This document shows positions 20,820 to 58,862 of a stretch of DNA of 64,000 nt, piece by piece. The stretch is taken from the IMG/VR virus record IMGVR_UViG_2541047596_000003, one strand, 5' to 3'. The notes below the pieces were generated by a model that saw only the letters and a program-made list of their open reading frames with translations, made no database searches and was not told where the DNA came from. Numbering within the stretch: position 1 is the stretch's first letter; each line of letters begins with the position of its first letter. A program made the translations under genes and the position numbers. Origin of the DNA: a virus (Duplodnaviria > Heunggongvirae > Uroviricota > Caudoviricetes).

Positions 20820-21017
20820 TTATACGCCATCAACCAAAAATAAAACCTCCTTCCCTTCCCGGGATCTACACCCAACGTACCCATCACCAACGTCGTGAAG
20901 ATACCATATATCGCCGTTGTCAGCTTTTACAGTAAGGTCGTTGATCTCATAGTCGTCAAACAATGTAAAAGCGTAAGTTTTGTCAACTACACAAGTCCCG
21001 TACATAACAACCCCCAT
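20820..21017 (-). CDS. Hypothetical small protein translationally coupled to M (65 aa)
   Basis: ATG overlaps the M stop codon (TAATG); followed by terminator hairpin. Confidence 0.45.
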   Translation of the reverse strand: MGVVMYGTCVVDKTYAFTLFDDYEINDLTVKADNGDIWYLHDVGDGYVGCRSREGKEVLFLVDGV

Positions 21018-21370
21018 TAGCCAACAACTTGCTCAAACGTTGCGTTTAGCGTGTACAAAGGCCCGTCTTTAGTCATGCTCCATTGCCGACAGACAAAAAG
21101 CCTTTGCACGTTATCCATTGACGGCGACCAGTAAAAAGCCTCGACCGCGCCGCGCGCCCTCAAGAATGCTTCCGCCTGGATTGCTACGTTTCCACCATCA
21201 CCACATCCGGCGCTACTGCCTTTAAACACCAGGGTGTAGCTATCAAGCAATGGATTGATACCTTTTACCTGTCTTTGCTCATAACCATCGCCCAGCTTAA
21301 CAACAGATACGTCTGGCTTCCTGGTCACGCTGTAGCTTCTTTGCGGCGTCCATCTGAACACTTCCGGCAT
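21017..21370 (-). CDS. Minor tail protein M-like (117 aa)
   Basis: Similarity to recalled lambda M (FRW.P.....V...GDGY.QR...G.N; C-terminal FEQVV). Confidence 0.75.
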   Translation of the reverse strand: MPEVFRWTPQRSYSVTRKPDVSVVKLGDGYEQRQVKGINPLLDSYTLVFKGSSAGCGDGGNVAIQAEAFLRARGAVEAFYWSPSMDNVQRLFVCRQWSMTKDGPLYTLNATFEQVVG

Positions 21371-21537
21371 AAAACCCCCACAAGTTACATTTTGTATATA
21401 TCTTTACGCGCTTCTACGCGAAAAATAAGATCATTGTCACAATGATTATAGCTAGTTTACAAAATGGCTTCACATAGCACGCAACAAGATGTATATAGAA
21501 AGCAAGAAGAAAGTAGTACCAACGAAGGAGGCCCAAA

Positions 21538-21693
21538 ATGAAACGCTATGTAGTAGTAATGCTAAATAACGCATTCGAACAAGTGGAAATAGCAATCGTT
21601 AAGGGTTTCGACGACGCATTCAAATACGGTCAATTCATGATGAATGCGAAAGAAGATGAATACCGGGACTTCTTCCTGAAGGCACTTAACTAA
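21538..21693 (+). CDS. Hypothetical small protein, moron (51 aa)
   Basis: ATG at 21538 with AAGGAGG 6 nt upstream; not in the ORF track (under 60 aa). Confidence 0.5.
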   Translation: MKRYVVVMLNNAFEQVEIAIVKGFDDAFKYGQFMMNAKEDEYRDFFLKALN

Positions 21694-21710
21694 GGATGAT
21701 GGGGTGAGTT

Positions 21711-21965
21711 ATGAAACTGGTAGCGATTGACAGAAATCTGAAAGCACAGAAAAACGCACAGGACCGGATCATCAAGAAAGGTAAGGAATTACTTAAAGCC
21801 TTTCTGAGAAAAGAAGTTTACCCCAAAAAGTTACGCGACGGTTACGGATACAAAATGGATATCAATCTTGATTGGAGGCTGTTTAGCGAAGATTTGAAGG
21901 TTTGGTTAATTGTTGAGCACCATGCCTATAACAAGTTATGTGGCGTGAAAGGCACTCATAAGTGA
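21711..21965 (+). CDS. Hypothetical protein, moron (84 aa)
   Basis: ORF 17 nt after the previous gene with GGGGTGAG RBS; followed by terminator. Confidence 0.5.
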   Translation: MKLVAIDRNLKAQKNAQDRIIKKGKELLKAFLRKEVYPKKLRDGYGYKMDINLDWRLFSEDLKVWLIVEHHAYNKLCGVKGTHK

Positions 21966-22051: not shown

Positions 22052-24394
22052 TTATTTGCGGCGAGGTTGCAACATTCCGCCTGGTCTTTGAGATTCCCTT
22101 GTTATCATTTTCATGGCTACACGTTCCATTGTTAATTCAAGTCTGCGGCTGTCTTCGTCGCTGAATCCGTTCGTGGTCTGAATGCTGATACTGACAGGCA
22201 TACTAATACCGCCACCGCCGCCAATATCACGGCCCGGAATAACTCTGCCGTTCTCGCCAGGGATCATATATTGATTGCCGTTAGATGTCTGGAATAGCTC
22301 CGGCCTGTTGTGTTCCCCTACGCGGTACATATTACCACCAATGACGCTACCACCATTAAAGCGACCGCCGCCGAAAATTGACGTAGCCAGCGACATGATC
22401 GCAGTGAGCGCCGCCGAACCAGCCGCCGCCCAGCTACCGCCAGTTGACGCCGCAGTTGCCGCCGCTGCTGGGGCCGCCGCCGCAGCAATGCTTCCCTGAG
22501 CTGCTACCGCGCTTGCTGTTGTACTTGTTTGCGTGGCCTTGCTTTGTGTCTCCATCATGATCTGATCTGCTATCCAGTTTGCAGCTATGTCTGAGAGTCT
22601 GTTACCGATATTGCCGAGTATATTGCTTCCTAAGTTAGCAAAAACATCACTCAATGATTGAGTGCCGTTTAACAGGCCAACAAGTGCATTGCTCATACCA
22701 CCTTTAAGGCCATTAACGCAATCACCGATAAGGCTGTTTGTGTCGCTTTGCGCCTGCCATTGCTCCCACTTCAGATCGCGGATCTGTTGCTCATAGGCTA
22801 ACAGTTCCTGTTTCTGTTGCGCTTCCGTCACGCCCAGGTCGATAAGCATTTGCTTACGGACGGCCCATTCATTTTGAACCTGCTGAATAGGGTCTACTTC
22901 GCCCTTTAGCTGATCCATCGGGCTTACTATTTGCTCCCATTTGTCGCGCAATTCCTCTACCGGAATTTGTGCTAATTCTTCCTTTAGTTCCTTACCTATC
23001 CCTTTTTGCGCGGCGCGGTACTCAAGGAGAGTGATTTTACCCTGGGCGAATGCAGCATCAATGGCCTTGCCGCTCTCTAACGCTTTGCGCATAGCGGCGG
23101 CGTCTTTGTTGTACTGGTCAGAAACGCTTATACCTTTATCGCCAAGACGATCAGCTTCAGATTTCTTCTCTTTTTTCTGTTTTTTCGGTTTGTCTACTGG
23201 CTTGTCGAATCCGGTAATCGCTCCGTCATTGGCGGCATTCTGTTCATTTTTCCTTGCTTCTTCTGTAGCCTGGATTGCTGCGGTCAGATCATCCTGTAGT
23301 TGCATGACCTTGCCAACGGTCTTACCGTATTTCTTCTCGTAGTTGCTGTTATATTCGTCGGTTTGCTCTCCTACGACCTCCTTCATCCATTTGTAGGCAT
23401 CCATTAGTGCCTTGATTGGCGTCACCATTGCGATGATCTTCTCGGCTACCTCGCCAGCCTTGATTCTGACATCTTCAAACATGTCGATGAATTCGCCACC
23501 AGCCGTCTTCAGGGTGTTAAAGCAGGTTTTAGCGAAATCAGCGCCTTCACCTAAAGCCTTAACACCTTTCGTTACAAGATCGATACCAGCAACAACCGTA
23601 TCGGATACACCGAAAAGATCATCCAATTGCTCAATAAGTCCCATAACCTCGACTTTAAGCTCATTCAGGGCCATGCCGGATGTGCGCGGCAACTGCGCAA
23701 ACTTCTCGTTTGTTTCCTGCGTAGCCGCCTGGATTGCGTTAACCATCCTTTCTGCCGTGATCTTACCGTCCAGCATTTCGGCGCGGAATTGGCCCATTGA
23801 TAACCCCATCTGGCGTGCCATTGTCTGTACGATGGTCGGGGTGTTTTCTAACAGGCTGTTGAATTCTTCAGCACGCAACACGCCACCGTCGATAGACTGA
23901 CGGAATTGACGCATTGAGTTTGACATCTGCTCCGCTGACGCGCCGCCCAACGCCCCCATTTTCTGAATCGTACCTACCAGGTTAAGCAATTGCCCTTCAG
24001 TGGCGGACGTGTTCTTCAGTGAGATAGCTAAGCCTTGCCACAGATCCCCGGTATCCTTCATGCTTTGGCCTGTTTCTTTTGATATTGCTTTCAGGCCATC
24101 AAAAACCCGTCCGGCGGACTCCGCATCGCCCGTAAGCATTTTGATTTTTACGCGAAGCATTTTTGCTTGCTCCGCCATATCCATAAATTGACGCACGGCC
24201 TCCGCAGCAATTAGCAAATGGATAACCCTGGTCAGTGCCTTGATGGATGTTTTCAGGGTGTTTACCTGGCGGTCAGCCTGTTTTGCGCCGCGCTCTATAC
24301 GCCCAAAGGCCTGGTCTGCCTGTCGTTGTGCAACGAGAAGTTGACCAGTTTTCGCATCAACTTCGTAATAAATTGTACCTACACTGGTAGCCAT
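22052..24394 (-). CDS. Tail tape measure protein (780 aa)
   Basis: Long Ala/Gly/Gln-rich alpha-helical protein, position upstream of M-L-K-I-J. Confidence 0.8.
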   Translation of the reverse strand: MATSVGTIYYEVDAKTGQLLVAQRQADQAFGRIERGAKQADRQVNTLKTSIKALTRVIHLLIAAEAVRQFMDMAEQAKMLRVKIKMLTGDAESAGRVFDGLKAISKETGQSMKDTGDLWQGLAISLKNTSATEGQLLNLVGTIQKMGALGGASAEQMSNSMRQFRQSIDGGVLRAEEFNSLLENTPTIVQTMARQMGLSMGQFRAEMLDGKITAERMVNAIQAATQETNEKFAQLPRTSGMALNELKVEVMGLIEQLDDLFGVSDTVVAGIDLVTKGVKALGEGADFAKTCFNTLKTAGGEFIDMFEDVRIKAGEVAEKIIAMVTPIKALMDAYKWMKEVVGEQTDEYNSNYEKKYGKTVGKVMQLQDDLTAAIQATEEARKNEQNAANDGAITGFDKPVDKPKKQKKEKKSEADRLGDKGISVSDQYNKDAAAMRKALESGKAIDAAFAQGKITLLEYRAAQKGIGKELKEELAQIPVEELRDKWEQIVSPMDQLKGEVDPIQQVQNEWAVRKQMLIDLGVTEAQQKQELLAYEQQIRDLKWEQWQAQSDTNSLIGDCVNGLKGGMSNALVGLLNGTQSLSDVFANLGSNILGNIGNRLSDIAANWIADQIMMETQSKATQTSTTASAVAAQGSIAAAAAPAAAATAASTGGSWAAAGSAALTAIMSLATSIFGGGRFNGGSVIGGNMYRVGEHNRPELFQTSNGNQYMIPGENGRVIPGRDIGGGGGISMPVSISIQTTNGFSDEDSRRLELTMERVAMKMITRESQRPGGMLQPRRK

Positions 24395-43091: not shown

Positions 43092-43321
43092 TCCTCTGTC
43101 TCCCAGCGGTCTATGCTGATTAAAAAGTCCCGGATAGCGTGTCGCTCGTCGCGCGTCGGTTTACGCTTCCGGTAAATTTTGAAATCGAACCATTCTTTTT
43201 CTTGTTCGAAGTCCAGATCGTAAGCAAGCGCCTCGATATATCCGCAGTCGTGATACTGGTAAGCCACGCCAGCACGAACAAAAAAGCGGGTTTTATCCCG
43301 CTTGTGTTCATAGATACGCAT
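43088..43321 (-). CDS. Hypothetical protein
   Basis: ORF-track ORF, operon strand, coupled. Confidence 0.4.
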   Translation of the reverse strand: MRIYEHKRDKTRFFVRAGVAYQYHDCGYIEALAYDLDFEQEKEWFDFKIYRKRKPTRDERHAIRDFLISIDRWETEE

Positions 43322-45121: not shown

Positions 45122-45311
45122 CCTTCACCTCGCGACGATAGATTTCTACTGGCTTAACCGGAATAGCGTTAAAATCCCCTTCATCCAGTGCGGCAATAAA
45201 CGTTAGCGCCAACCGTGCTTCAACACCGCTTAAATACTTGCACCATGCCTCACCGTTATAATCTTCAAAAAGAATAATCACTTTTTTCATGTTTATCTCT
45301 TGTTGTTTCAT
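45111..45311 (-). CDS. Hypothetical protein
   Basis: Start overlaps stop of the Cys-rich Q-like gene. Confidence 0.4.
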   Translation of the reverse strand: MKQQEINMKKVIILFEDYNGEAWCKYLSGVEARLALTFIAALDEGDFNAIPVKPVEIYRREVKDEA

Positions 45312-46039
45312 TATTCACCCCGTGTCACTCGTTTAATTTCGTTATCAGCCCGCGCCTCTTCTTTGAACAATTCAGTAATGGCGTCTTCATAGAAAGCACG
45401 GTATTTCTTCCACCACGTTGATCGGCTTACCGGAAATACAAGCTGATTAACCGCACGCCGGACAAGATCTACAGGGAAACGCGAGTACCCGCGCCCGCCG
45501 CAGTGCTGGCACGTTTTGAATACTGGCATTTCCGCCGCTTCGCTGGCTGCTTTATCCGGTACTTCGCCACGCCCCTTGCACCTCTGGCAATGGTTTTTAA
45601 CGTAGCCTTTGCCGTTGCACCGCGAGCAAACTGTCGATGTGTATTCACAATATGGATTCGGTAAAAGCCCGTTACCTCCGCACTTAGGGCAAACCTTTTC
45701 GGTAGCCGCACTTTGGCAGTAATCCCGAAACGCGAAAACGGCAACAAGAATAATAAGATCATTGCGTTGTTCTTCATTTAATTCCATCACGTATTCGTAA
45801 TCTTTCGCCATAGCCCTTAAACGCTCTGTAAGCAAAATTACGGCCCTGTGTTTTTCAGCTTGCGATAGCTCCATTTTCCCTAAAAAAGCACTATAGCCAA
45901 GCTCTACGCGCGATTGCGCCATACCAGCGGCGGTAAGCGCATCCGTCGTATTAAGTGCATCCGGGGATGTTCCCCGGCTTTCGTCTGATAATCGCGGTGA
46001 TTTGGGAAAGTGGAATTTCAGAATGGATTCTAAATTCAT
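45311..46039 (-). CDS. Cys-rich protein with four CxxCxGxG zinc-finger motifs; possible Q-type antiterminator (242 aa)
   Basis: CPKCGGNG, CSRCNGKG, CQRCKGRG, CQHCGGRG; position just downstream of rusA as in lambdoid nin-Q regions. Confidence 0.45.
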   Translation of the reverse strand: MNLESILKFHFPKSPRLSDESRGTSPDALNTTDALTAAGMAQSRVELGYSAFLGKMELSQAEKHRAVILLTERLRAMAKDYEYVMELNEEQRNDLIILVAVFAFRDYCQSAATEKVCPKCGGNGLLPNPYCEYTSTVCSRCNGKGYVKNHCQRCKGRGEVPDKAASEAAEMPVFKTCQHCGGRGYSRFPVDLVRRAVNQLVFPVSRSTWWKKYRAFYEDAITELFKEEARADNEIKRVTRGE

Positions 46040-46625: not shown

Positions 46626-47227
46626 GCTGCCTTTCTCCTTAAGGCGTCCAATTTTGCCTGATAGATGTTTATTAGCTCCTTACATTCTGCGATCGTCCAT
46701 TTATGCGTATCATTGTTGTTCTCCAGAGCTACCACCCTGGCGAGGCCAATTTTTCGAATCAGCGCCGGGCGATACCCTCCGATGTTGCCGTCTAGTGTCT
46801 GGTTGCAGTGCCTACATTGCTTATGGCAATTATCCTCGTTGAAGCGAAGGTGTCCGGCGGCGGCTACCGTCCTGTAATGACCTGCATCCCACCCGCATTG
46901 CTCACCGTAGTAAGTCCCGCAAGATATACACGGCAAGCGCGCGTCACGTTCGCGAATATAGGCGTTAAATACATTTTGAACTTGTTTGATCCAATAACTA
47001 CGCGGATTTAACTGTTTACGCTTCCGGTTGCGTTCTTCCCTCTGGCTATCACGGCGTTTCTTCCGCTCCATAGCCTTCATAGCCTTCTCACGGTCGCGGC
47101 ATAGCTGGTCAAACTTCAGTTCTTCCAGACATTCATCGCTGCACCACGTTTGATTGTGATATTTAGGCTCAAAAAAAACGCCGCAGCATTTGCAACGGCG
47201 TCTTATGGGTTTTTTAGGGTTTTGCAT
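46622..47227 (-). CDS. ninG: NinG-like protein
   Basis: Strong similarity to recalled lambda NinG (RRRCK..C...F, PRSYWIKQ, LPCISCGT, WDAGHYRT.AAA..LRFNE.N.HKQC); start at internal ATG 47227 with GGGGTGG RBS. Confidence 0.8.
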   Translation of the reverse strand: MQNPKKPIRRRCKCCGVFFEPKYHNQTWCSDECLEELKFDQLCRDREKAMKAMERKKRRDSQREERNRKRKQLNPRSYWIKQVQNVFNAYIRERDARLPCISCGTYYGEQCGWDAGHYRTVAAAGHLRFNEDNCHKQCRHCNQTLDGNIGGYRPALIRKIGLARVVALENNNDTHKWTIAECKELINIYQAKLDALRRKAA

Positions 47228-47241
47228 AAAAACCACCCCGA

Positions 47242-47418
47242 TTATTTTTGATTCTCTGTTTCGTTCAGCCTTTCGGCGTGTCCGGCCCTTAGCCAATGTT
47301 CTAAGCATTCGTTGCACTCGTTACAGCCTCCTTTCTTCGTGCTGCATACATTGCACATTGCACGCATAACGCTTTCTCGTTCATAGTCGTCATGCCATTG
47401 GTAATCATCAAAAGACAT
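47242..47418 (-). CDS. NinF-like small CxxC protein (58 aa)
   Basis: ATG 47418 with AAGGAGAG RBS; Cys-rich; position immediately upstream of ninG. Confidence 0.45.
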   Translation of the reverse strand: MSFDDYQWHDDYERESVMRAMCNVCSTKKGGCNECNECLEHWLRAGHAERLNETENQK

Positions 47419-47577
47419 AATGCTCTCTCCTTTTCAGGTGATTTCTACGCATTTCAGCGCTGCCGGATTTTTAAAGAGCATTTTGTTTGCTTGAAGTATA
47501 CAAAATGGATACACCAGAACAAGGCGAAAAGCGCCATTATGTGATCCACATCACGCAATGACGCCATTTTGTAAATT

Positions 47578-48336
47578 TCAGTCCGATAAAACGCGGTCAT
47601 GGTTAGCCAGGAATACAGCACGGGCAAAGCCACGCGGTGTTAGTGAGCGGATCATCTTTGTTCGTTTCGTCCTGCCTCCGGTTTTCGCCCACCCAGGGTT
47701 ATCACCAGAGTTAAGATCTACAGGTCTAAAAAGCGGCTGCCTGAATCCGTTGCCGCACCATATGCAAGTTTTCTTCGTGTACGCGTCGCGCGGTGGGTAA
47801 ACATCAGGGAAAGCAGGATGCTTGTCATCTTCCGGCAGGTAGCCACCGTAAGCGCAAGGATTGAAGATAAAATCCGGTTTACGCCATAGCGTTGACAGCA
47901 CACCAACAGGATTCTCCACCATCCACGGCACGTTATACATGTTAGCCAGAGATTCAACCAACATTGCGTTTCTTGCCGCCCTATTCTGAAAACAAGGATC
48001 TTTCCTGTATTTATCAACGAACCAGCGAGCGCCTGACACAGCGAGATCGTCGCATGGAGGAAAGCCCAGGATAATGTCAGGCTCTGGATAAACAGACAAT
48101 TCAGGGGAGAACATTACCAGGAAATGGCTATCAATCCAGACGTTAACGTATTCAATATTTGGATGAATGATTTTAACGCCTTCATAATCTCCGTGATTTG
48201 CGCCGTCATAGTTGAAGCAATAGCACTTATATCCAGCTTCCGCCCAATCTTTAACGGCGTACCCGCTGCCGTCGTACAGCGACCACACCACCCAACTTCT
48301 AAGCCAATTATTTAACCAATGTTTAGCCCTGCTCAT
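47578..48336 (-). CDS. Putative DNA cytosine-5 methyltransferase-like protein (252 aa)
   Basis: GFPPCDD (PC-motif-like) and MVENPVG (ENV motif); shorter than canonical Dcm. Confidence 0.5.
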   Translation of the reverse strand: MSRAKHWLNNWLRSWVVWSLYDGSGYAVKDWAEAGYKCYCFNYDGANHGDYEGVKIIHPNIEYVNVWIDSHFLVMFSPELSVYPEPDIILGFPPCDDLAVSGARWFVDKYRKDPCFQNRAARNAMLVESLANMYNVPWMVENPVGVLSTLWRKPDFIFNPCAYGGYLPEDDKHPAFPDVYPPRDAYTKKTCIWCGNGFRQPLFRPVDLNSGDNPGWAKTGGRTKRTKMIRSLTPRGFARAVFLANHDRVLSD

Positions 48337-48878
48337 TTTCTACCCTCAAACGTGAAATAGCGGCGCATAATGATGGTGATCACCGTTACCGCTGCCATTT
48401 TTGAGATGAATTGCATAGCTGATATTTCCGGCATAAACGCCATAAACGATAGCGTAGGAAAAATTAACGCATCACCAATGGCGGACGCTATATTTGCAGG
48501 CCAACGTTTAGAATCAAAGCCACCAGGCAAAACCCGGTAAACGCCGCCAGAAATAAGTGCACCGGAAACAACCGCAACGAATGACGCGATCGCCACCATT
48601 CCGGCGTCGTAATTTATCAGCACCGTGATTGCGCCAGCGGCGGCGCATGTTGTAGCCGACCATTTCAGGCCGCCGTCATATAACAGGAGGTCACGGATCA
48701 TCATATTGACACACACGGCGGCTACCGTGGTGATCGGAATTACCCACGGGCCGCAATGATTAACAATAAGATTGATGATCACAAAAACGGCGACATAAAC
48801 GCAGGCTAATAACCTGTCAATTGTCACCCTTTCCATTTTTATGATACCCCGCCGCGCGTAATAGCGATTCGTTGTCAA
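48333..48878 (-). CDS. Polytopic membrane protein (181 aa)
   Basis: Several hydrophobic helices; coupled to methyltransferase gene. Confidence 0.45.
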   Translation of the reverse strand: MTTNRYYARRGIIKMERVTIDRLLACVYVAVFVIINLIVNHCGPWVIPITTVAAVCVNMMIRDLLLYDGGLKWSATTCAAAGAITVLINYDAGMVAIASFVAVVSGALISGGVYRVLPGGFDSKRWPANIASAIGDALIFPTLSFMAFMPEISAMQFISKMAAVTVITIIMRRYFTFEGRK

Positions 48879-48920
48879 ACTTCACATCAAGCCGATTAGT
48901 AATCTCACCACCGTTAAACA

Positions 48921-49328
48921 TCACAGGTGGGATTGCCCCGGTACAATAGATGGTTCTGGTCCGGCAAGGTCAGCAAAAGTTTTCTTCAATCCACCGATAG
49001 GGAGATCAAAAACGCCCTGTTTTTTCTTTTGCTCTTCCTCCCGCTCCGTTAATATTTGCTCAGCTTTTAGCGCGTTATAGCTAATTAAATCAATTAGTGT
49101 GTCTGTCGGATCGCTGTTATTGCTCAAAATAGCCTCTAAACGCGCCTCCTTGAGACAAATTAGCAGATCCCATACATCAAGCGTGGTTAAATCTGCCCCC
49201 TTCTTAGCGTTGTAAATAGTGGCTATTTTTGGCGCTGATTTTTCCTCTTTTTTGTCGTAGCCGTTTTGCTTACCTCTTTGCTCTATGGTTTCTGCTGCAA
49301 GTCTTAATAAATCTGCTGCCTTAGTCAT
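48921..49328 (-). CDS. Hypothetical protein (135 aa)
   Basis: ORF overlapping the Dam-like gene stop. Confidence 0.4.
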   Translation of the reverse strand: MTKAADLLRLAAETIEQRGKQNGYDKKEEKSAPKIATIYNAKKGADLTTLDVWDLLICLKEARLEAILSNNSDPTDTLIDLISYNALKAEQILTEREEEQKKKQGVFDLPIGGLKKTFADLAGPEPSIVPGQSHL

Positions 49329-49869
49329 TATTTGCGCCTCTCGCGTATAGCTCTTTACGTGTTATCTGCGTGAAAATACATTCATGTCTGCATCGTGGAT
49401 GCCAGATCAAGAACAAGCTCCCCTTATTGTTCCCGCTTACTGGTTTCCCTGTTGCAGCATTGATAAACGCCAGCCGCCCGCGCGTGATTAATCGGCATTC
49501 GTTTGCCGTCTCCACGCCGTTCATAAACCAGCTAACAGAAATGTCAGCGGGCAATAGCATTACACAGCCAATGTGATTTCGTTGATGTTCAAGCGCCGCC
49601 TTATCAACGAATGGTCCCGGATTAGAATATGGCGGATTCATCCAGACATACTCACCAGGCATCGCCACCGCTCCCCACGGATAATGGAGCGTGTCCATTT
49701 CTTCGGTTATATATCGCGGGATTAATGCGTTTTCCTTGTTTGCCGCCACATCCGCGACGAACTCGAATTCCCGATCCATTCCTCTAAAAACGGGTTTTGG
49801 CGTTTGCCATAAGTCTTTTATTTCTTTCGGCGTATGGCTGCCGCCGTAATCATTTTTCATTACGTCCAC
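49321..49869 (-). CDS. Phage DNA N6-adenine methyltransferase (Dam-like, 182 aa)
   Basis: NPPY catalytic motif (WMNPPYS) and overall resemblance to phage Dam family. Confidence 0.72.
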   Translation of the reverse strand: MDVMKNDYGGSHTPKEIKDLWQTPKPVFRGMDREFEFVADVAANKENALIPRYITEEMDTLHYPWGAVAMPGEYVWMNPPYSNPGPFVDKAALEHQRNHIGCVMLLPADISVSWFMNGVETANECRLITRGRLAFINAATGKPVSGNNKGSLFLIWHPRCRHECIFTQITRKELYARGANND

Positions 49870-50103
49870 CTAGAAATAATCCTGTTCCGTTCCCCAGCGG
49901 TTATTCAGATACCCCACCAACCACACAAAACGCTCAATACTGATTAGCGGGGCGACCTTGCGATAATGCTTATCTAATATCAGCCGCGTGGCTTTATCGC
50001 TGTATCCGTTCTTTTCTACCTCCGCCTTGCAGGCCGAAAGCGCGGCGCGGGCGGCAGTCTTTACGGCGTTAAATTGCGGCTCTGACAGGTTAAATAAAGC
50101 CAT
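49870..50103 (-). CDS. Hypothetical protein
   Basis: ORF-track ORF trimmed to internal ATG adjacent to upstream stop. Confidence 0.35.
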   Translation of the reverse strand: MALFNLSEPQFNAVKTAARAALSACKAEVEKNGYSDKATRLILDKHYRKVAPLISIERFVWLVGYLNNRWGTEQDYF

Positions 50104-50104
50104 T

Positions 50105-50347
50105 TTATAAATCATCAGTAGAATCAGCGAAAAAGAACCCAACAAATACACTAACAGCAATAATAACCCTTAATATATAAAGCGCATCATCAGGTGATGG
50201 AATTTCTGGTAGCTCCCATGTAACAAACGACACACCACATAAAATTCCAATAAAAACCGTAGCTATACATGAGAATACGAAAAAAGAACAAAATAACCAT
50301 CCAATAATGAAGTCAATAATTGCACGCATCATTTTAAACGTCCTCAA
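50105..50347 (-). CDS. Small membrane protein (80 aa)
   Basis: Two to three hydrophobic helices. Confidence 0.4.
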   Translation of the reverse strand: MRTFKMMRAIIDFIIGWLFCSFFVFSCIATVFIGILCGVSFVTWELPEIPSPDDALYILRVIIAVSVFVGFFFADSTDDL

Positions 50348-50537
50348 TTACCCCGCCTTTCACGCGCTCTTTAATATCCCATACGTGAGGCTTGCATATT
50401 TCTTGATAGTAGCGATCCGGCCTGCTGCCGAAATACCATTTGCCATCCATATAAAAATAAACGCCAGAAACATTTCCTGGCGCTGCCTTTGTTGCTGCTT
50501 CTGGAATTTTCCATTCCATGTAATGTTTAAATTTCAT
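50334..50537 (-). CDS. Hypothetical protein
   Basis: ORF-track ORF, operon strand. Confidence 0.4.
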   Translation of the reverse strand: MKFKHYMEWKIPEAATKAAPGNVSGVYFYMDGKWYFGSRPDRYYQEICKPHVWDIKERVKGGVIEDV

Positions 50538-50721
50538 GAGTTTTTAAATAACCTCTTCTGAATGCTTTGATGTAAATTCCTAATCTCCTTATATGTTGAA
50601 CGCCATCAATAAGACGTATTAAATAAATCGCTCCTTTTGCGTCAGATACAAATCCACACCCGAAACCAATGCCAACTAATTTTAGGCCATCAGGTATTCT
50701 ATAATCAGTTTTCTGTTCCAT
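50527..50721 (-). CDS. Hypothetical protein
   Basis: ORF-track ORF, operon strand. Confidence 0.35.
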   Translation of the reverse strand: MEQKTDYRIPDGLKLVGIGFGCGFVSDAKGAIYLIRLIDGVQHIRRLGIYIKAFRRGYLKTHEI

Positions 50722-50819
50722 GCCTCACCTCATATGGTATTCAATAAACCACCTGATAAACAGACATAAGGCAATAAAACCCCAGCAACAGCACATATAA
50801 AACAATGTGTCGTCCATAA

Positions 50820-51038
50820 TTAAGCCTCAATAACACCGTAATCGAACGTGCCTAAATACCGTTCGATACTTACAACCTCAATACCATCAATGCACCGTTT
50901 CCACACAGACACCTGGCTTTCATTTTCTCTGAAGTGCATATTAGAAAGCACTTCATCGGCTGGGTAGCCTTTCCCGGCGACGTAGGCATCGTGACCTACG
51001 CCACCTTCTACGCAATAAAGCATCAATTCGCGTTCCAT
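50820..51038 (-). CDS. Hypothetical protein (72 aa)
   Basis: Internal ATG 51038 with GGAGG RBS; upstream region holds motif and CRP-like site. Confidence 0.4.
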   Translation of the reverse strand: MERELMLYCVEGGVGHDAYVAGKGYPADEVLSNMHFRENESQVSVWKRCIDGIEVVSIERYLGTFDYGVIEA

Positions 51039-51136
51039 CTTGTTTCCTCCGTGCCGTAAACCTCTTAATTTCAGTTTACAAAACGGATATGCGATCGCAA
51101 TACAAAATGTATATTTATGTGATCGCAATCACGCTG

Positions 51137-51757
51137 TTAATGCAGTACACGTTTTTCCTGTTCATGAATAGGCTGTGCACTTTTCATTGCTTCGTTAAGC
51201 GTAGCTATAGCCGCCTGTACGCCGAATTCATTAGCGCGCATATCATCGCCAACAAATTTTCCGTAAAGCACCGGAATAAACGCCTTAACGTTCACTTCTT
51301 CGTGTCCTTCCTCAATAAATTTCTGCAACATCTTAACCTCAAAGACCTTTTTCATCAGGCCGCGCATAGAATGCAGTGAAACACTGCCAAGCAGATCCTT
51401 GTTCAACGGGAAAATAACAGCACTTCCGAACGCGAGCGGATCAACATCTTCCGGCACTGGTGCGCGTCCGAATTCCTCCTCCATGCGTCTTACGAAAGTG
51501 AGGCAGAACACATAACGCGCTACCGATGTTTTTTCTTCCATGCTTAAAGACACGTAATCGCGGATTGATGCATTCATCATAATATCGACAATCTGTAGCG
51601 CCAGATTTAAGTCACTGTCATACACTCCTGCTTCCATATCTTTTAAAACTTCGTGATAATCCTTAGTTACCACTTCGTGAAAGCTCGCGTCCTCTGTGTA
51701 GCGAGTAATTAACATGCCTTCGCTGCCGAGTGAATAAGCCGTTTTGATATTGTTCAT
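51137..51757 (-). CDS. Hypothetical protein (206 aa)
   Basis: ATG 51757 with AAGGGT RBS, 12 nt after upstream stop. Confidence 0.45.
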   Translation of the reverse strand: MNNIKTAYSLGSEGMLITRYTEDASFHEVVTKDYHEVLKDMEAGVYDSDLNLALQIVDIMMNASIRDYVSLSMEEKTSVARYVFCLTFVRRMEEEFGRAPVPEDVDPLAFGSAVIFPLNKDLLGSVSLHSMRGLMKKVFEVKMLQKFIEEGHEEVNVKAFIPVLYGKFVGDDMRANEFGVQAAIATLNEAMKSAQPIHEQEKRVLH

Positions 51758-51768
51758 AATATTTACCC

Positions 51769-52101
51769 TTATAGTGGATGATGCCATTTCATTTCAGTTT
51801 CTGAATTAAACGGGTTTCCTTCGCTTGAAAGGAATAAATCACGCTCCCGTTTCAGTTCTTCCGGGCTTATTTCTATTTCATCAATCTGACCGAACGATCC
51901 AGGCATCATCCGTTTTAAATCGGATAGCGGACGCATAAGGCCGCAGCCACGTAACAGCATGTCTATAGCGAATTGTCTACGCCCTGCTGCATCATTAAAG
52001 CGACGCGCCCACGGGACACACACAATCCGGCGTTCGAACTCAATAAATAGTGATAGCTTGTTAGTCTGACTATCATAGGCCTTATGTAATTTAATTTTCA
52101 T
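51769..52101 (-). CDS. Hypothetical protein
   Basis: ORF-track ORF, operon strand. Confidence 0.4.
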   Translation of the reverse strand: MKIKLHKAYDSQTNKLSLFIEFERRIVCVPWARRFNDAAGRRQFAIDMLLRGCGLMRPLSDLKRMMPGSFGQIDEIEISPEELKRERDLFLSSEGNPFNSETEMKWHHPL

Positions 52102-52282
52102 TTAACACCTCAACATATTGTTCAAGATGCCATCTCCCCACCTCATCATCTTCCTCATCAAATAATATTACTTGACCACCAGGCAAAAAAGAAAAGGCAG
52201 CTATAATAAACTCATAGCCATACCAAGTGCGGATCTTCTCACCGCCTTTCAGGTGTTTTACTTTCACTAATTTTATAGCCAT
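52091..52282 (-). CDS. Hypothetical protein
   Basis: ORF-track ORF, operon strand. Confidence 0.35.
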   Translation of the reverse strand: MAIKLVKVKHLKGGEKIRTWYGYEFIIAAFSFLPGGQVILFDEEDDEVGRWHLEQYVEVLNEN

Positions 52283-52545
52283 ACGCCGTACATCCCATTC
52301 AGCCCGGCAAACAATTTCCGCCAGTGGTCTTCAACATAATCCCGGAACGGCTTAACGCGAACATTGCGGGCCTTCAGTTCAATCTTGTCAAAGAAACGAG
52401 GCTCAATAATCGTTCCATCCAGATATTTAACCAGGATCGGGCGCTCAAGATCGTTATATGTCTTGTTCAGCACAACCAGACCAGGGTCGCTACGATATTC
52501 TGGCAAAACAACAAGATCGCCATCTTTTGCATTCCAAGTAACCAT
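52273..52545 (-). CDS. Hypothetical protein
   Basis: ATG 52545 overlapping upstream tiny-ORF stop (TGATG). Confidence 0.4.
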   Translation of the reverse strand: MVTWNAKDGDLVVLPEYRSDPGLVVLNKTYNDLERPILVKYLDGTIIEPRFFDKIELKARNVRVKPFRDYVEDHWRKLFAGLNGMYGVWL

Positions 52546-52664
52546 CACATCGCCCCTTTACAAATAAAGCTAATCACCGCAGCAAGTGCGCCGCAAAACA
52601 CAATCGTAAACAGGAAACAAATAACGCAAAAAGCGACCCTTACAATATTCTTGCAAACCTTCAT
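52545..52664 (-). CDS. Tiny hydrophobic peptide (38 aa)
   Basis: MKVCKNIVRVAFCVICFLFTIVFCGALAAVISFICKGAM; coupled to neighbours. Confidence 0.35.
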   Translation of the reverse strand: MKVCKNIVRVAFCVICFLFTIVFCGALAAVISFICKGAM

Positions 52665-52667
52665 AAC

Positions 52668-52787
52668 TCACCCCAACAATGCAACAATTAATTCAGCAAT
52701 AAAAACGGCGACATAAAAAGAAGCTGTGATATAAATCACCCCAATAACGAAGGCGGCGGCTAATGCCGCAATTTTTACCATGCTCAT
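52668..52787 (-). CDS. Tiny hydrophobic peptide (39 aa)
   Basis: MSMVKIAALAAAFVIGVIYITASFYVAVFIAELIVALLG; ATGA overlap with upstream stop. Confidence 0.35.
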   Translation of the reverse strand: MSMVKIAALAAAFVIGVIYITASFYVAVFIAELIVALLG

Positions 52788-53023
52788 TTATCAGCCTCCG
52801 CAATGAACTTATCAAGCCATTTGTTATTGGCCAGGCGTTCGGCATCTTCGCCAAATGTTTTACGTTCGCTTAATTCCTTGCGCGTTGGCATAGGCCATTT
52901 ATCGTGCCACCCGGCAGACGTTTCGAACTCATACAGGCCGCCGTTAAAAGTGACATAGTCATCAGATGAGTCAGGCAGCTCTTTATCAACATCTTTTTCT
53001 TCGATCATGATTTGATACCTCAT
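52784..53023 (-). CDS. Hypothetical protein
   Basis: ORF-track ORF, operon strand, coupled. Confidence 0.4.
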   Translation of the reverse strand: MRYQIMIEEKDVDKELPDSSDDYVTFNGGLYEFETSAGWHDKWPMPTRKELSERKTFGEDAERLANNKWLDKFIAEADK

Positions 53024-53301
53024 TAATCGTTAATAACCTGGCCCATACGCCCGCGATATTTGCGCATACGTGGATCGACATATTCAGGCCAGTGCATATC
53101 CGGTTTTCTTTGCAGCGGATAAAAACTTGCCTGCCAGTTGTCGAACCATATTTGTTTTGCGTACAGGTCACTAAATCTTTTCGCCATCCGTTCCGCTGCC
53201 GTGCCGCATAAAAAAAGCCCGCGATCGATTTGATCACGGGCTTCTTTTAATACTTGCTCTTTTGTTCGTGGCGGTGGTGGCGGTTTTAGATAATCAACCA
53301 T
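53023..53301 (-). CDS. Hypothetical protein (Pro-rich N-terminus)
   Basis: ORF-track ORF downstream of ssb. Confidence 0.4.
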   Translation of the reverse strand: MVDYLKPPPPPRTKEQVLKEARDQIDRGLFLCGTAAERMAKRFSDLYAKQIWFDNWQASFYPLQRKPDMHWPEYVDPRMRKYRGRMGQVIND

Positions 53302-53316
53302 CGCTAACCTATTGGA

Positions 53317-53721
53317 TCAAAACGGGATATCGTCATCAAAGTCCATCGGCGGATTATTCCCGTTATTATTCTGCTGCTGCGGAGGCGCTTTCTGCTGCTG
53401 GCCTTGTTGGTTAACGTTCATGAATTCAAATTCGTTAACCGCCACTTCTACCGCCGTTCCCTTCGTGCCGTCGTTCCGGTCATATTGCCGAACATCCAGG
53501 CGACCGCTTACCACTATTTTTCCACCCTTGCGGATATGTGGCGCTAATTTTTCCGCACGCTCACCAAATACCAGGCAAGTGACCCACATTGTCCGCTTAT
53601 TATCGCCGTAGCCATTCGTTACAGCTAACGGAAAACTACCAATCGCTTTCCCGTTTTGTGTGTAGCGAACCTCCATATCATTACCGATATTCCCGCCCAG
53701 CGTGATTGAATTTAAACTCAT
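53317..53721 (-). CDS. ssb: Single-stranded DNA-binding protein SSB (134 aa)
   Basis: OB-fold SSB sequence with Gln/Pro-rich linker and acidic tail ...DFDDDIPF. Confidence 0.9.
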   Translation of the reverse strand: MSLNSITLGGNIGNDMEVRYTQNGKAIGSFPLAVTNGYGDNKRTMWVTCLVFGERAEKLAPHIRKGGKIVVSGRLDVRQYDRNDGTKGTAVEVAVNEFEFMNVNQQGQQQKAPPQQQNNNGNNPPMDFDDDIPF

Positions 53722-54365
53722 TAACCCATCTCCCCGTTAAGCTCTGCTACCCGGATGTCATAAACATCTTTTGCCTTGATTCGATGTTCCGATCCTTCCG
53801 GTAGTAATTTCCAGCATTTGCCAAATATTTCACGCAGCTTGTTAGCGTCCTGCGCTTTCGCTGCTGCATCACAGAAACGTGCTAATACTTCATCAGGATT
53901 TGGCGGCGCTTTCTGCTGCTGTGGTTGTTGTTTTGGTGGGTTTTTCTGCTGGCGAGGCTGCTGGCCTGTCTGCTTAGCGTATGCGTCAGTATCAGGATCT
54001 CGCGCATCATCAATGCAGAATAAACCGTTCAAAGCATATTTTCGCGCGTAACTTGATGTCGCACCTGTTAGCTGGCTTGCGTCCATTCCCTTCTTGCTTT
54101 CTTCTTCCCTGGCGTAAGCCGTTACCGCTATTTCGTCTTCACCGTCGCTTAGCGTCGCCGTAGCTTTCACATAATAGCGATTGCCGATCAGGACAATTTC
54201 ATCGCTTACAGTCAGCGTAATACTTTGAAGCAGTGGTTTAACCGCCTCTAAAATATCCTCCGCCGACCTGTAATTATATCCACCAAAATTATTACGCTGA
54301 TTTTTCGGCGCGTTCAGCGTTTGCTGAATCGTCCATAGCTTTTTATGTAACTCTGTTTTCACCAT
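53721..54365 (-). CDS. erf: Erf-family single-strand annealing protein (214 aa)
   Basis: Resembles P22 Erf-type recombinase; overlaps ssb start (ATGA). Confidence 0.75.
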   Translation of the reverse strand: MVKTELHKKLWTIQQTLNAPKNQRNNFGGYNYRSAEDILEAVKPLLQSITLTVSDEIVLIGNRYYVKATATLSDGEDEIAVTAYAREEESKKGMDASQLTGATSSYARKYALNGLFCIDDARDPDTDAYAKQTGQQPRQQKNPPKQQPQQQKAPPNPDEVLARFCDAAAKAQDANKLREIFGKCWKLLPEGSEHRIKAKDVYDIRVAELNGEMG

Positions 54366-54481
54366 TTAATCTCCCGTGCTGTTAACACTATGTATAAGGC
54401 TTTATTCGCGGCGCTCCACATTTCGGCATCGTGAAGCATTTCCGCTACTGCCAGTTTGAATTGAAGCGCCTGAATAACCAT
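54362..54481 (-). CDS. Tiny ORF coupled to erf (39 aa)
   Basis: ATG 54481 with GGAG RBS; stop overlaps erf start. Confidence 0.3.
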
Positions 54482-54511
54482 AATGTCATCTCCGGATGTT
54501 TACATTTTGTA

Positions 54512-54802
54512 TTAATGGTAGCGGACTTTATCCAGGGGTTTTTCCCCTAAATGGCGTGGTTGCGTTGCGTGGTAGTAGCTGCCGCTTTCATTTTCCGTAT
54601 ACCATTTTACTGATCCTTTGCGACGTTCTTTAATGCTATTTGGTTTGCATCTTTCCTCGTTTGCAAATCGAATAGCTTTATCCACATTGTCTGTTTTATT
54701 GATTGCAGGTGATGATTTTCTTTCGTTTTCTCTTTTTATCCTTCTGCGTTCCCTGGCATTCATTTTGCTATCACATTTACCATATATAATTGTAACGCTC
54801 AT
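54512..54802 (-). CDS. N-type transcription antiterminator (P22 gene 24-like, arginine-rich motif)
   Basis: N-terminus MSVTIIYGKCDSKMNARERRRIKRE closely parallels recalled P22 gp24 MTVITYGKS...NAKTRRHERRRK. Confidence 0.5.
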   Translation of the reverse strand: MSVTIIYGKCDSKMNARERRRIKRENERKSSPAINKTDNVDKAIRFANEERCKPNSIKERRKGSVKWYTENESGSYYHATQPRHLGEKPLDKVRYH

Positions 54803-55281
54803 AATCTGATCTCCGTATATCCTTGATGATACTTAATAAAAAATCATCTTCGTTAATTGCCGCACTTCCAGCGGCTGACCAGATTGTTAATGAGCGGCTT
54901 AACATCTTTCAACTAATCCCGCAATCATCGCCGTTCCCGGCGTGACCTTGCTCACTCCAAGCAAGCTGACTCGTCGCCTTGCGTGCGGTTTCGTGGGGGA
55001 TGTAACGCTTTAAACACCCCATGCGCCTTGTTATCAGTGCCGCTTTCGGTCCCCCATCGGGGAGTTACTCCACGGTTGACAAGGTGTTAAGCCTGATTTT
55101 TAAAGTGCCAGGAAGTTGCTTTTGTTACCTGCGCCCTTCCTTTGACTCGCAATATACGCCCCGTAAAACATCGAGTCAATCCATTTTGTATACTTTTTTA
55201 AAATATTTTATATGCCATTGATATTTAAATAATAAATAACGTTTTCTGTTTACGTTTTGGTGTTTTCCAGGCAAAGAAAAG

Positions 55282-55297
55282 CCGCCATTCGGCGGCT
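55282..55297 (-). terminator. Terminator immediately after repressor gene
   Basis: GCCGCCATTCGGCGGC hairpin followed by T-rich tract on the minus strand. Confidence 0.5.
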
Positions 55298-55302
55298 AAT
55301 GT

Positions 55303-55950
55303 TTATGGCAGGTTTACGATCTTCGCATCAACCACCACGCCTATAATTTTTGATTCTGGATTCATAGGGATTGGCGGATACAGCGGATTGAGCGAACGTA
55401 AAAGCCTTTGACCTCCATCAATAATCAACTGTTTAAACGTCGGTATCTGCCCTTCCTCAAGCTGGGCTATAACCAGTTTGCCGTCAATAGCTGGCGCGTG
55501 CGGGTCCACAAGTATCATCGTCCCCGCCGGGATGCTCAACCCCTGCGGCGCGTTCATTGATTCACCTTTGGCAACCAGCCAGTAACTGTCATCTGAACAA
55601 ATAACGCTAGTCGTAACGTGTCGTAATGCTGAACGCCTTGCGTCATCCATATTGTTTACTGTGTCCTTCCAGTCAATAACCGGGTAACTACCTAAATCAC
55701 GCGGCGGCACGGCCTGAAGTGTATTAGAAACAGAATCATCAATGACCATGCCATCATGTGTAACAGTAAACTGCCGACGACCAAGCTCGCGCATAATCCG
55801 CGCAATATCTTCAAGATTTGGCTCTCGGCGACCGTTCAGCCAGTGTGACAGGCCGCCTTTAGTTATCCCCATACGATCCGCGAGTGAATCCTGGCTCATG
55901 CCCTGCGCCCGCATGAGCTGCTTTGCTAAGTCATACCATTTTGTTTTCAT
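55303..55950 (-). CDS. CI/C2-type repressor with LexA-like S24 peptidase domain (215 aa)
   Basis: N-terminal HTH (QDSLADRMGITKGGLSHW), C-terminal autocleavage domain with GESM Ser and catalytic Lys; divergent from plus-strand early genes. Confidence 0.78.
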   Translation of the reverse strand: MKTKWYDLAKQLMRAQGMSQDSLADRMGITKGGLSHWLNGRREPNLEDIARIMRELGRRQFTVTHDGMVIDDSVSNTLQAVPPRDLGSYPVIDWKDTVNNMDDARRSALRHVTTSVICSDDSYWLVAKGESMNAPQGLSIPAGTMILVDPHAPAIDGKLVIAQLEEGQIPTFKQLIIDGGQRLLRSLNPLYPPIPMNPESKIIGVVVDAKIVNLP

Positions 55951-56113
55951 GTCGCTACCCTATAACCTCAAAAAGTTTGATGCAAGTCACAAAACGTGTA
56001 TTTTAAGCCTTGATCTTAAAATTCCATTTTGTAAACTTGCAGACAAGGTAAGGCCATACTTGCAAAGACGCAAGGAAAAAGATAACTGAAGGCACAAAAA
56101 GGCACTTACCTTA

Positions 56114-56148
56114 TGCTCTTTAAAAATCCGGTGTCGCTGCGAAGCGAA
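56114..56148 (+). promoter_or_regulatory. nut-like site (boxA-like TGCTCTTTAAAAA plus small hairpin)
   Basis: boxA-like sequence close to the rrn/P22 boxA as recalled, followed by GTCGCTGCGAAGCGA stem-loop; identical 18-mer recurs at 47463-47480 on the minus strand. Confidence 0.4.
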
Positions 56149-57938: not shown

Positions 57939-58862
57939 ATGCGCAAGTTAACACACGAAGAACAAATTGCGGCTATTGCGAAAATTAATCCTGATGTTGA
58001 AGTGCTGGGAGAAATTACCGGAAATCATAAAAAAGTGTTATGCCGTTGCAAGGTTTGTGATCATGAGTGGTCGGCTACACCTTGCAACCTAAAACACGGG
58101 CGCGGTTGCCCGAAATGCGCTGGGAAGATGAAGTTATCGCACGAAGAACATATTGCCGCTATCGAGAAAGTTAATCCTGATATTGAAGTGTTGGGTGAAA
58201 TTATTAATGACAAAACAAAAGTATTATGCCGCTGCAATATCTGTAGTCATGAGTGGTCGGCTACACCTTGCAACCTAAAACACGGGCGCGGTTGCCCGAA
58301 ATGCGGAATATTAAAAGGCGCACAAGGAAGGACATTAACACACGAAGAACACATCACAGATATAGCCAAAGTTAACACTTATGTTGAAGTATTGGGAAAA
58401 ATTAAGAACCATAGAGATAAAGTCCCGTGCCGCTGCAAGATCTGTAGTCATGAGTGGTCTGCCAGGCCTTGCAACCTTAAAAGCGGGTACGGCTGTCCAA
58501 AATGCGCGAAATACGGTTTCCTTCGTCATGAGTATGGCAAACTTTACATCATGGTTGATGATCTGGAAGTGCCTACACAAATGAAAATTGGGGTAAGTGT
58601 TCAGGAAAATAAACGAAGAAACGATATATTAAAAAGCGCACATAAAGCAGGCGTTAGAATTCCTAATTTGCATATCGTGAAAACGTTAGAAGGGCCAACC
58701 GAAAATATACATGAACTAGAAAACACGATGCATAAGGCTTTTAGCAATTATAAAATTAACTTTCCTGTAAAATTTGATGGTAGCAATGAGTTTTTTTATT
58801 ACAGGCCGGAAGTATTCGACATGGTAGAAGAAGCATTTAAAGAGATTGTTTGCTGCCAATGA
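57939..58862 (+). CDS. Protein with three tandem zinc-ribbon repeats and a C-terminal T5orf172/GIY-YIG-like domain (307 aa)
   Basis: Three about 61-aa repeats each with CRC..C...W......C.....G..CPKC; C-terminal GKLYIMVDD...KIGVS motif. Confidence 0.65.
   Translation: MRKLTHEEQIAAIAKINPDVEVLGEITGNHKKVLCRCKVCDHEWSATPCNLKHGRGCPKCAGKMKLSHEEHIAAIEKVNPDIEVLGEIINDKTKVLCRCNICSHEWSATPCNLKHGRGCPKCGILKGAQGRTLTHEEHITDIAKVNTYVEVLGKIKNHRDKVPCRCKICSHEWSARPCNLKSGYGCPKCAKYGFLRHEYGKLYIMVDDLEVPTQMKIGVSVQENKRRNDILKSAHKAGVRIPNLHIVKTLEGPTENIHELENTMHKAFSNYKINFPVKFDGSNEFFYYRPEVFDMVEEAFKEIVCCQ
57948..58520. repeat. Intragenic tandem triplication (about 190-nt units) encoding the zinc-ribbon repeats
   Basis: Identical 42-mer CACCTTGCAACCTAAAACACGGGCGCGGTTGCCCGAAATGCG at about 58078 and 58262; third copy diverged. 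Confidence 0.6.

Follow-up and report, generated by a model that had tools for sequence, protein, structure and literature searches.

Identical boxA-containing 18-mers as probable nutL and nutR2 sites of an mEp021-type prophage

How the early genes of phage mEp021 escape termination has been described. As summarized in PMC11893012, which cites Valencia-Toxqui et al. 2023 (Arch Virol 168:92), a lambda-N-like protein, Gp17, is behind early antitermination in mEp021 and works via three nut sites. In the same summary, nutL stands next to the repressor gene, nutR1 is found upstream of gp17, and nutR2 comes downstream of the cytosine methyltransferase gene; nutL and nutR2 are named as the most alike of the three, and Nus-factor dependence is said to have been reported for the mEp phages. 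These phages are classed as non-lambdoid, and arginines 17, 19, 20 and 24 of the protein are fully conserved over 48 genomes (PMC11893012). Here, we consider a viral sequence of 64,000 nucleotides (IMG/VR record IMGVR_UViG_2541047596_000003, hereafter the window), in which a preliminary description had pointed to an identical boxA-like 18-mer on each transcription arm and to an arginine-rich, N-like gene, and had suggested N-type antitermination on both arms. The suggestion agrees with the published work on Gp17, a 93%-identical homologue, as PMC11893012 reports it. We conclude that the finding is a correct rediscovery of what is already known, as the N/nut system was published for mEp021 in 2023 and its conservation over the group's 48 genomes in 2025. 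It therefore has little weight as a discovery, and its remaining value lies in annotation and in small testable additions. The details added to the published picture are a rule for boxB, a sequence link to P22 nutL and a possible promoter belonging to nutR2 itself.

The two copies of the 18-mer are very probably the boxA-plus-spacer segments of nutL, on the replication arm, and of nutR2, on the arm that carries N, nin and Q, in a prophage of the mEp021 type, with a third site, nutR1, upstream of the N-like gene (Table 1). The 18-mer, TGCTCTTTAAAAATCCGG, was found without mismatch at both places, and allowing up to 3 mismatches gave three matches in the window against 0.07 expected by chance, a count that none of 100 dinucleotide shuffles reached. 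Both exact copies lie on the transcribed strand of their arm, downstream of a promoter-like element, and a small hairpin is predicted 2 nt downstream of each. Thus, the stem-loop noticed after the plus-strand copy was borne out, and the search for boxB-like hairpins that had been proposed for both sites was positive at both. The minus-strand copy sits upstream of ninF and ninG, as had been described. Likeness between nutL and nutR2 extends outside the 18-mer, over 39 nt at 79% identity that take in boxA and boxB and over an upstream block of 37 nt at 73%.

The resemblance of the 18-mer to rrn and P22 boxA, which the preliminary description had noted, was borne out. The first 9 nt, TGCTCTTTA, equal the boxA consensus of the E. 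coli rrn operons, UGCUCUUUA (PMC2724277), exactly at both sites, and the spacing and stem are the same as in P22 nutL. Only the first 9 to 13 nt of the 18-mer are boxA, and the remainder is the boxA-to-boxB spacer.

The system has three nut sites and not two. Both sites of the preliminary description are nut sites, but nutR1 was missed because its boxA, CGCTCATTAACAATCTGG, differs from the 18-mer at 4 positions; it surfaced once four mismatches were allowed. All three fit the positions published for mEp021 (Figure 7 legend and the mEp021 annotation), namely, next to the repressor gene where the replication arm begins to be transcribed away from it, ahead of gp17, and past the cytosine methyltransferase gene on its downstream side. 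The distance of about 7 kb between the minus-strand site and N had been thought unusual, a reservation that falls away as the site is the second nut on the same long operon. The N-like gene, erf and ssb, the methyltransferases, ninF, ninG, rusA and Q are co-directional on the minus strand in one operon, and since this operon unites N with recombination functions, nin and Q in this phage group, an extra nut on the N arm is expected. In mEp021, nutR1 and nutR2 are 7,947 bp apart; the abstract of Valencia-Toxqui and colleagues is said to put the distance at "more than 7.9 kbp."

The hairpins obey a common rule. In 64 kb, the pattern CGCTGNRAN{1,2}GCG has exactly three matches, all of them 3 to 5 nt past a boxA-like element; as the pattern was derived from the nut sites themselves, the scan shows only the absence of further copies. 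Each site runs boxA-spacer-boxB on the strand that is transcribed, with an early promoter or promoter-like element upstream of it. The loops of nutL (GCGA) and nutR2 (GAAA) are 4-nt GNRA loops flanked by U and A or U, and an extra base is found only in nutR1 (GGAA-G). The GNRA character of lambda and P22 boxB is kept, whereas their 5-nt GNRA-like pentaloop with one extruded base is not present in this form.

We compared the nut sites among 50 sequences, comprising 43 IMG/VR contigs that encode an N-like protein at 69 to 100% identity, six phage genomes and the window. The N-like gene is kept in every relative, and nutL was recovered from 47 sequences and nutR2 and nutR1 from 49 each, the gaps being loci cut by contig ends. 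Loss of the 18-mer from relatives that retain the N-like gene had been named as an observation that would speak against antitermination at these sites. boxA and boxB are kept at both positions in all relatives with coverage, but the nutL and nutR2 18-mers are identical to each other in only about one-third of the genomes. All 47 relatives with coverage at nutL share the core GCTCTTTAAAAA, and it is the spacer that differs (TCCGG, CCCGG, CTAGG, CCAGG, CCTGG and TCTGG). At nutR2 the 18-mer is exact in 47 of 49. mEp021 has the same nutR2 18-mer as the window and one different base in nutL, where the 18-mer begins with A in mEp021 and most relatives, unlike in the window. Finally, the nutR1 position reads TGCTCTTTAA[C/T]AATCTGG in 13 genomes, most of which thereby have a perfect rrn-type boxA.

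The hairpins vary as paired RNA would. Natural loop variants are GCGA, GUGA and GCAA in nutL, GAAA in nutR2 and GGAA followed by G in nutR1, all of the GNRA form. The outer stem pair is U-A in nutL and G.U, A-U or C-G in nutR2, so that four standard pair types are seen and just one case is unpaired. When nutL and nutR2 are aligned, pairing holds in 88% of cells but in only 34 to 54% once the partner column is slid, and the covariation score was higher than in any of 500 shuffles. Moreover, nutR1 of the most divergent relative reads GCAC-UGAAAU-GUGC, with a G-C pair changed to A-U and a GAAA loop. Natural variation and compensatory stem changes thus point to CGC-U-GNRA-N(1-2)-GCG as the probable boxB rule.

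The N-like protein is encoded by a real open reading frame (ORF) on the minus strand, as had been claimed. Its residues N15 A16 R17 E18 R19 R20 R21 I22 K23 R24 include the four arginines, 17, 19, 20 and 24, that are conserved in the group (PMC11893012). PHROG 271, annotated "anti-termination protein N-like," is the family to which the protein matches at 1.3e-13, and P22 N (6.9e-40) and lambda N (9.2e-24) fall in it as well. When the three are aligned, the arginine-rich motifs line up with A16, R19, R20 and R24 invariant, but overall similarity to P22 N is weak, at about 28% in the multiple alignment. A tblastn search of 50,697 phage records with the protein returned the mEp group only and no lambdoid phage, and a scan of species-representative genomes for Gp17 relatives returned none.

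How the parts would work together can be outlined from these data and from better-known phages. We put the probability at about 0.9 that a Gp17-like protein brings about N-type processive antitermination on the three nut sites. The present analysis itself shows the sites with their orientation and conservation, how the boxB stems covary, what the protein is and where terminator-like hairpins lie. Each nut site would be transcribed into RNA. By analogy with lambda and P22, from which the contacts between proteins and RNA elements are taken, boxA (UGCUCUUUA, the same as rrn boxA) would recruit host NusB and NusE, NusA would bind the spacer, and the boxB hairpin CGC-U-GNRA-N1-2-GCG would be bound by the arginine-rich N terminus of the Gp17-like protein. 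The complex would stay on RNA polymerase and allow it to read through downstream terminators; here, Gp17-dependent read-through and Nus dependence are taken from the mEp021 literature. On the N arm the terminators overcome would be t2, t3, t4, the one inside ninG and t5. Read-through would lead to expression of the recombination, nin, Q and later or lysis genes, and of the replication genes on the other arm.

Several results weigh against this account. The function would be carried over to the window's prophage from a homologue, mEp021, and the assignment of the nut sites leans on published positions and not on letter-by-letter sequence, that of nutR1 partly on what the 2023 abstract reportedly states. 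Within the stem, three of five pairs are invariant across relatives and hence uninformative, and U25-N30 is not a conserved pair, being unpaired in about half of the variants. Folding energies of 41- to 71-nt windows at the nut sites were no better than those of shuffled sequences (z of 0 to -0.3); the stems are too short for this test, and comparative evidence was used instead. For the protein, Pfam gave no match, phmmer against PDB sequences matched no solved N structure, and BLASTP against P22 N was weak (E = 0.017 over the first 20 residues). Finally, on the replication arm there is no strong intrinsic terminator within 5 kb of nutL, and the first convincing one lies 5.3 kb away, at 61467-61495.

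How transcription reaches nutR2 admits a second reading. Instead of, or besides, reloading polymerase that comes from the N-gene promoter, nutR2 might head a third early unit of its own, starting from the element TTGTTC-16-TATACT (47522-47495) between t4 and nutR2, with Gp17 supplied in trans gating ninF, ninG, rusA and Q as a timed cascade. We regard this as possible but doubtful. The 37-nt block upstream of nutR2 that is 73% like the nutL promoter region holds both hexamers at the same 16-nt spacing, and over 49 loci CTTGTT and ATCCATTTTGTATACT are kept but the intervening 6 to 7 nt change, as is usual in promoters. Moreover, the conserved t4 hairpin lies immediately upstream, and terminator, promoter and nut in succession is the layout of a unit boundary. 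The element, however, agrees with the sigma-70 consensus at only 8 of 12 positions and was unreported by the promoter scan, and the legend in PMC11893012, which gives t2 and t5 as experimentally demonstrated, gives t4 as predicted only. The 17-mer ATCCATTTTGTATACTT also occurs at 55179-55195 (plus strand), where it lacks a properly spaced -35 element and abuts the -35 of the N operon, and because of this copy ATCCATTTTGTATACTT may serve to bind a protein and not as a -10 region. Valencia-Toxqui and colleagues reportedly favor, in their abstract, polymerase reading from nutR1 through nutR2. We speculate, tentatively, that nutR2 is the leader of a third early unit and that the motif ATCCATTTTGTAWACTT, which also abuts the N-operon -35, is a control element common to the three early promoters, such as a repressor site. 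If so, the extra nut would exist due to an extra regulated early promoter, and Gp17 acting in trans would time the expression of Q.

Two further explanations dispense with the N-like protein or with RNA altogether, and we consider both unlikely. The rrn-type boxA might act alone, with UGCUCUUUA loading NusB, NusE, NusA and NusG to suppress Rho-dependent termination and the 18-mer selected for Nus binding. rrn antitermination needs no phage protein and boxB is dispensable for it, and NusA binding to rrn boxA requires no spacer and is tighter than to lambda boxA (PMC2724277). The identity of the first 9 nt with rrn boxA, the invariant boxA core and the boxA-like copy at 55092-55109 that has no boxB fit such a role. 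However, each of the three strong boxA copies is followed at a fixed interval by a conserved GNRA hairpin that shows compensatory changes, no relative is without the N-like gene, and Gp17 itself is reported, in the summary of PMC11893012, to be responsible for early antitermination in mEp021; thus, a boxA-only mechanism seems highly improbable. Less probable still is a repeat with no part in RNA, either acting at the level of DNA as an operator or another site for protein binding or left over, neutrally, from a duplication between the two arms. The shared blocks of 39 and 37 nt would suit a duplicated module, but the 18-mer is not palindromic, its copies are oriented with transcription on opposite strands, its variation obeys RNA pairing and the GNRA rule and not DNA symmetry, and the sites are conserved in 47 to 49 genomes while the adjoining intergenic sequence varies. 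We therefore favor N-type antitermination at three nut sites.

Table 1. Positions of the nut sites, promoters, terminators and genes in the window
Feature	Position	Strand	Remarks
nutL boxA (TGCTCTTTA, 56114-56122) and spacer	56114-56131	+	Intergenic, between repressor gene and replication genes; exact 18-mer match
nutL boxB, UCGC-U-GCGA-A-GCGA	56134-56147	+	Predicted hairpin
nutR2 boxA and spacer	47463-47480	-	Between methyltransferase gene and ninF-like ORF, as in published nutR2; exact 18-mer match
nutR2 boxB, GCGC-U-GAAA-U-GCGU	47447-47460	-	Predicted hairpin
nutR1: boxA-like CGCTCATTAACAATCTGG (54879-54896), TCA, boxB GCCGC-U-GGAA-GU-GCGGC (54859-54875)	54859-54896	-	57 nt upstream of N-like start codon
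Fourth boxA-like copy, GGCACTTTAAAAATCAGG (3 mismatches)	55092-55109	-	Without adjacent boxB-type hairpin; present in 37/50 genomes
N-like antiterminator gene, 96 amino acids, arginine-rich motif NARERRRIKRENER	54512-54802	-	93% identical to mEp021 Gp17
N-operon promoter, TTGACT-17-TATATT	55151-55179	-	Best sigma-70-like match in 16-kb region, 10/12; conserved in 7/7 aligned genomes
Replication-arm promoter-like element, TTGATC-16-TAAACT	56010-56037	+	Putative; about 75 nt upstream of nutL; 8/12, below scan threshold
Promoter-like element, TTGTTC-16-TATACT	47495-47522	-	Putative; 14 nt upstream of nutR2 boxA; resembles replication-arm promoter region
t2 terminator-like region	52737-52769	-	Between nutR1 and nutR2; TERM_2 of mEp021; fold not distinctive, z = -0.98
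t3 terminator-like hairpin	50460-50484	-	Between nutR1 and nutR2; TERM_3 of mEp021; z = -2.69
t4 terminator-like hairpin	47530-47565	-	Directly upstream of nutR2 module; TERM_4 in mEp021; -20.8 kcal/mol, z = -2.95
Terminator-like hairpin followed by eight U	47171-47204	-	Inside ninG start, about 260 nt downstream of nutR2; z = -3.05
Strong intrinsic terminator	43284-43303	-	About 2 kb beyond Q; TERM_5 of mEp021 (just before holin gene there); z = -5.8
Repressor gene	55303-55950	-	Pfam HTH_3 and Peptidase_S24
Replication genes	56256 onward	+	
DNA methyltransferase gene	47578-48336	-	
ninF-like ORF	47242-47418	-	
Q-type late antiterminator gene	45311-46039	-	Pfam Antiterm (Q) 1.5e-32; syntenic with mEp021 gp37; downstream target of nutR2 transcription unit

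Terminator-like hairpins are found downstream of each nut on the N arm. At the spot equivalent to the hairpin inside ninG, ARNold predicts terminators in mEp515, mEp010, mEp044, mEp554 and mEp013.

What lies between the N-operon promoter and nutR1 differs among genomes. An optional module of 195 nt (54897-55091, minus strand) starts immediately past the fourth boxA-like copy (55092-55109). Of 50 genomes, 37 carry it and 13 lack it cleanly; in the latter, the near-consensus boxA TGCTCTTTAA[C/T]AATCTGG lies about 35 nt past the -10. Its predicted fold of -71.1 kcal/mol (z = -2.84) was matched in stability by none of 200 shuffles, and its ends are predicted to pair in a terminal stem, CUUAACA/UGUUAAG. 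The module occurs only in mEp-group phages, holds a 37-amino-acid ORF (54909-55022) equivalent to mEp021 gp16 and is too conserved for a covariation test. An Rfam scan of 44 to 60 kb, with E up to 10, returned only weak, irrelevant matches, none of them in the module or at the nut sites. The boxA-like copy at 55092-55109 was considered as the main nutR1 and rejected, as it has no adjacent boxB-type hairpin and is missing from 13 of 50 genomes, while the site at 54879 is universal and, in mEp021, fits the distance to nutR2 that the 2023 abstract reportedly gives.

The early promoter regions share further repeats. At the replication-arm promoter-like element the hexamers are conserved and the spacer is variable over 47 loci. 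The motif CCATTTTGTAWACTT has 6 matches in the window at up to 2 mismatches against 0.13 expected, at 47494-47508 (-), 55181-55195 (+), 56024-56038 (+), 47564-47578 (+), 21453-21467 (-) and 21844-21858 (-). Upstream of both nutR2 and nutL a copy overlaps the -10-like hexamer, a further copy, oppositely oriented, abuts the N-operon -35, and t4 has one on either side as an inverted pair. In the tail region, a small plus-strand ORF pair has one copy in the intergenic sequence upstream of it and another within its second ORF. At 51100-51112 and 54501-54513 there are related near-palindromes, ATACAAAATGTAT. Either a promoter element or a binding site for a regulator could be behind the motif; the literature searched described no operators for the repressor.

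Two inverted repeats stand near the divergent promoters. In the leader between the replication-arm promoter and nutL, the plus-strand repeat CTTGC-AAAGAC-GCAAG (56059-56074) keeps its half-sites among relatives while its 6-nt spacer varies (AAAGAC, AATGAT or AAGGAT), and it could be a DNA operator or a small RNA hairpin ahead of boxA. More copies of ACTTGCA/TGCAAGT flank the replication-arm promoter, at about 55983-55989 and 56035-56041. An 8-bp inverted repeat, TTGACTCG ... CGAGTCAA, at 55142-55149 and 55172-55179, brackets the N-operon promoter core, with the -35 held in one arm, and this repeat may be an operator.

The window is, by nucleotide similarity, an E. coli prophage of the mEp021, or mEpimmI, group. 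We place it there because of an 11-kb match to mEp phages and identity to the chromosome of E. coli strain M1/5. Six phages (mEp021, mEp010, mEp013, mEp044, mEp515 and mEp554) cover 83 to 95% of the 11-kb query at 87 to 89% identity, with mEp021 and its relatives at 87 to 88% over 11 kb and alike in gene order. The M1/5 chromosome is 100% identical to a 1.9-kb query across the immunity region, and the element occurs in 35 of 5,426 complete E. coli genomes. The mEp021 annotation lists, on one strand and in order, repressor, gp17, erf, ssb, two methyltransferases, ninF, ninG, rusA and Q, with the replication genes diverging on the opposite strand; the window has the same order, so that synteny and similarity both place it with the mEpimmI phages. 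Pfam recognizes NinG in the window at 1.3e-66, in addition to Q. RefSeq names the genes under the region only "LexA family protein," "hypothetical protein" and "MarR family transcriptional regulator," and annotation would gain from the assignments made here.

Other features of the window were noted in passing. Directly after the N-like gene, a 40-amino-acid ORF (54359-54481, minus strand) has a weak match (E = 0.0014) to the PHROG "Kil protein for bacterial septation inhibition" and a strong one to phrog_34942, a small family of its own. The plus-strand ORF 57939-58862 contains, on the minus strand at 58283-58298 and 58097-58112, a terminator-like hairpin in two identical copies (CGGGCAACCGCGCCCG, then TGTTTTAGGT) separated by 186 nt, which suggests a tandem duplication within the gene. 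Two small plus-strand ORFs of 51 and 84 amino acids (21538-21965) stand amid minus-strand tail genes, flanked by a tape-measure-like gene (22052-24394) and a gene at 21017-21370, and have the look of an accessory (moron) cassette. On the strand opposite to this pair, a consensus TATAAT (21449-21444) comes just after a copy of the motif CCATTTTGTA.

How the window's nut sites relate to those of other systems depends on the element compared. With rrn antitermination they have the 9-nt boxA in common, UGCUCUUUA, but every strong boxA in the window comes with a conserved boxB and with a phage N-like protein. With lambda they have in common the layout of boxA, spacer and boxB, an N protein with an arginine-rich N-terminal motif and membership of that protein in PHROG 271, and Nus-factor dependence has also been reported for the mEp phages, according to PMC11893012. 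Lambda nutL reads CGCTCTTAAAAATTAA-GCCCTGAAGAAGGGC, and its boxA-spacer segment CGCTCTTAAAAATTAA is close to TGCTCTTTAAAAATCCGG, but the window boxA is of the rrn type with an extra U. The boxB elements differ as well: lambda has the stem GCCCU/AGGGC and a 5-nt loop, whereas the window has CGC/GCG and a 4-nt loop. In contrast to the lambdoid organization, with two nut sites and with nin and Q opposite N, the window has three sites, two of them on the N arm, and its N-like, nin and Q genes are co-directional in one operon.

The nearest lambdoid relative, judged by its letters, is P22 nutL. The P22 record gives nutL as CGCTCTTTAA-CTTCGATGAT-GCGCTGACAAAGCGC-GAACAAATACC, which can also be written CGCTCTTTAA-N10-GCGCUGACAAAGCGC-GAACAAATA, and the window nutL reads TGCTCTTTAA-AAATCCGGTG-TCGCTGCGAAGCGA-AAAACAAATATC. 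In both, boxA to stem measures 20 nt, the stem is CGCUG..AGCG and a similar AACAAATA trails. The P22 loop is the 5-nt GACAA, and those of the window, 4-nt GNRA loops (GCGA or GAAA), are one base shorter. The P22 N protein (gp24) also belongs to PHROG 271, and its N terminus, MTVITYGK...NAKTRRHERRR, is similar to the MSVTIIYGK...NARERRRIKR of the window. P22 has one nut per arm, with nin and the Q-equivalent genes on the arm opposite to N.

The system closest to that of the window is the Gp17/nut system of mEp021. The protein is 93% identical, the window carries R17, R19, R20, R21 and R24, and its three nut sites stand where the published ones do. In both, no other pair of nut sites is as alike as nutL and nutR2, and in the window, unlike in mEp021, their 18-mers are identical. 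Ultimately, the window is another prophage of the group, with no essential difference from mEp021.

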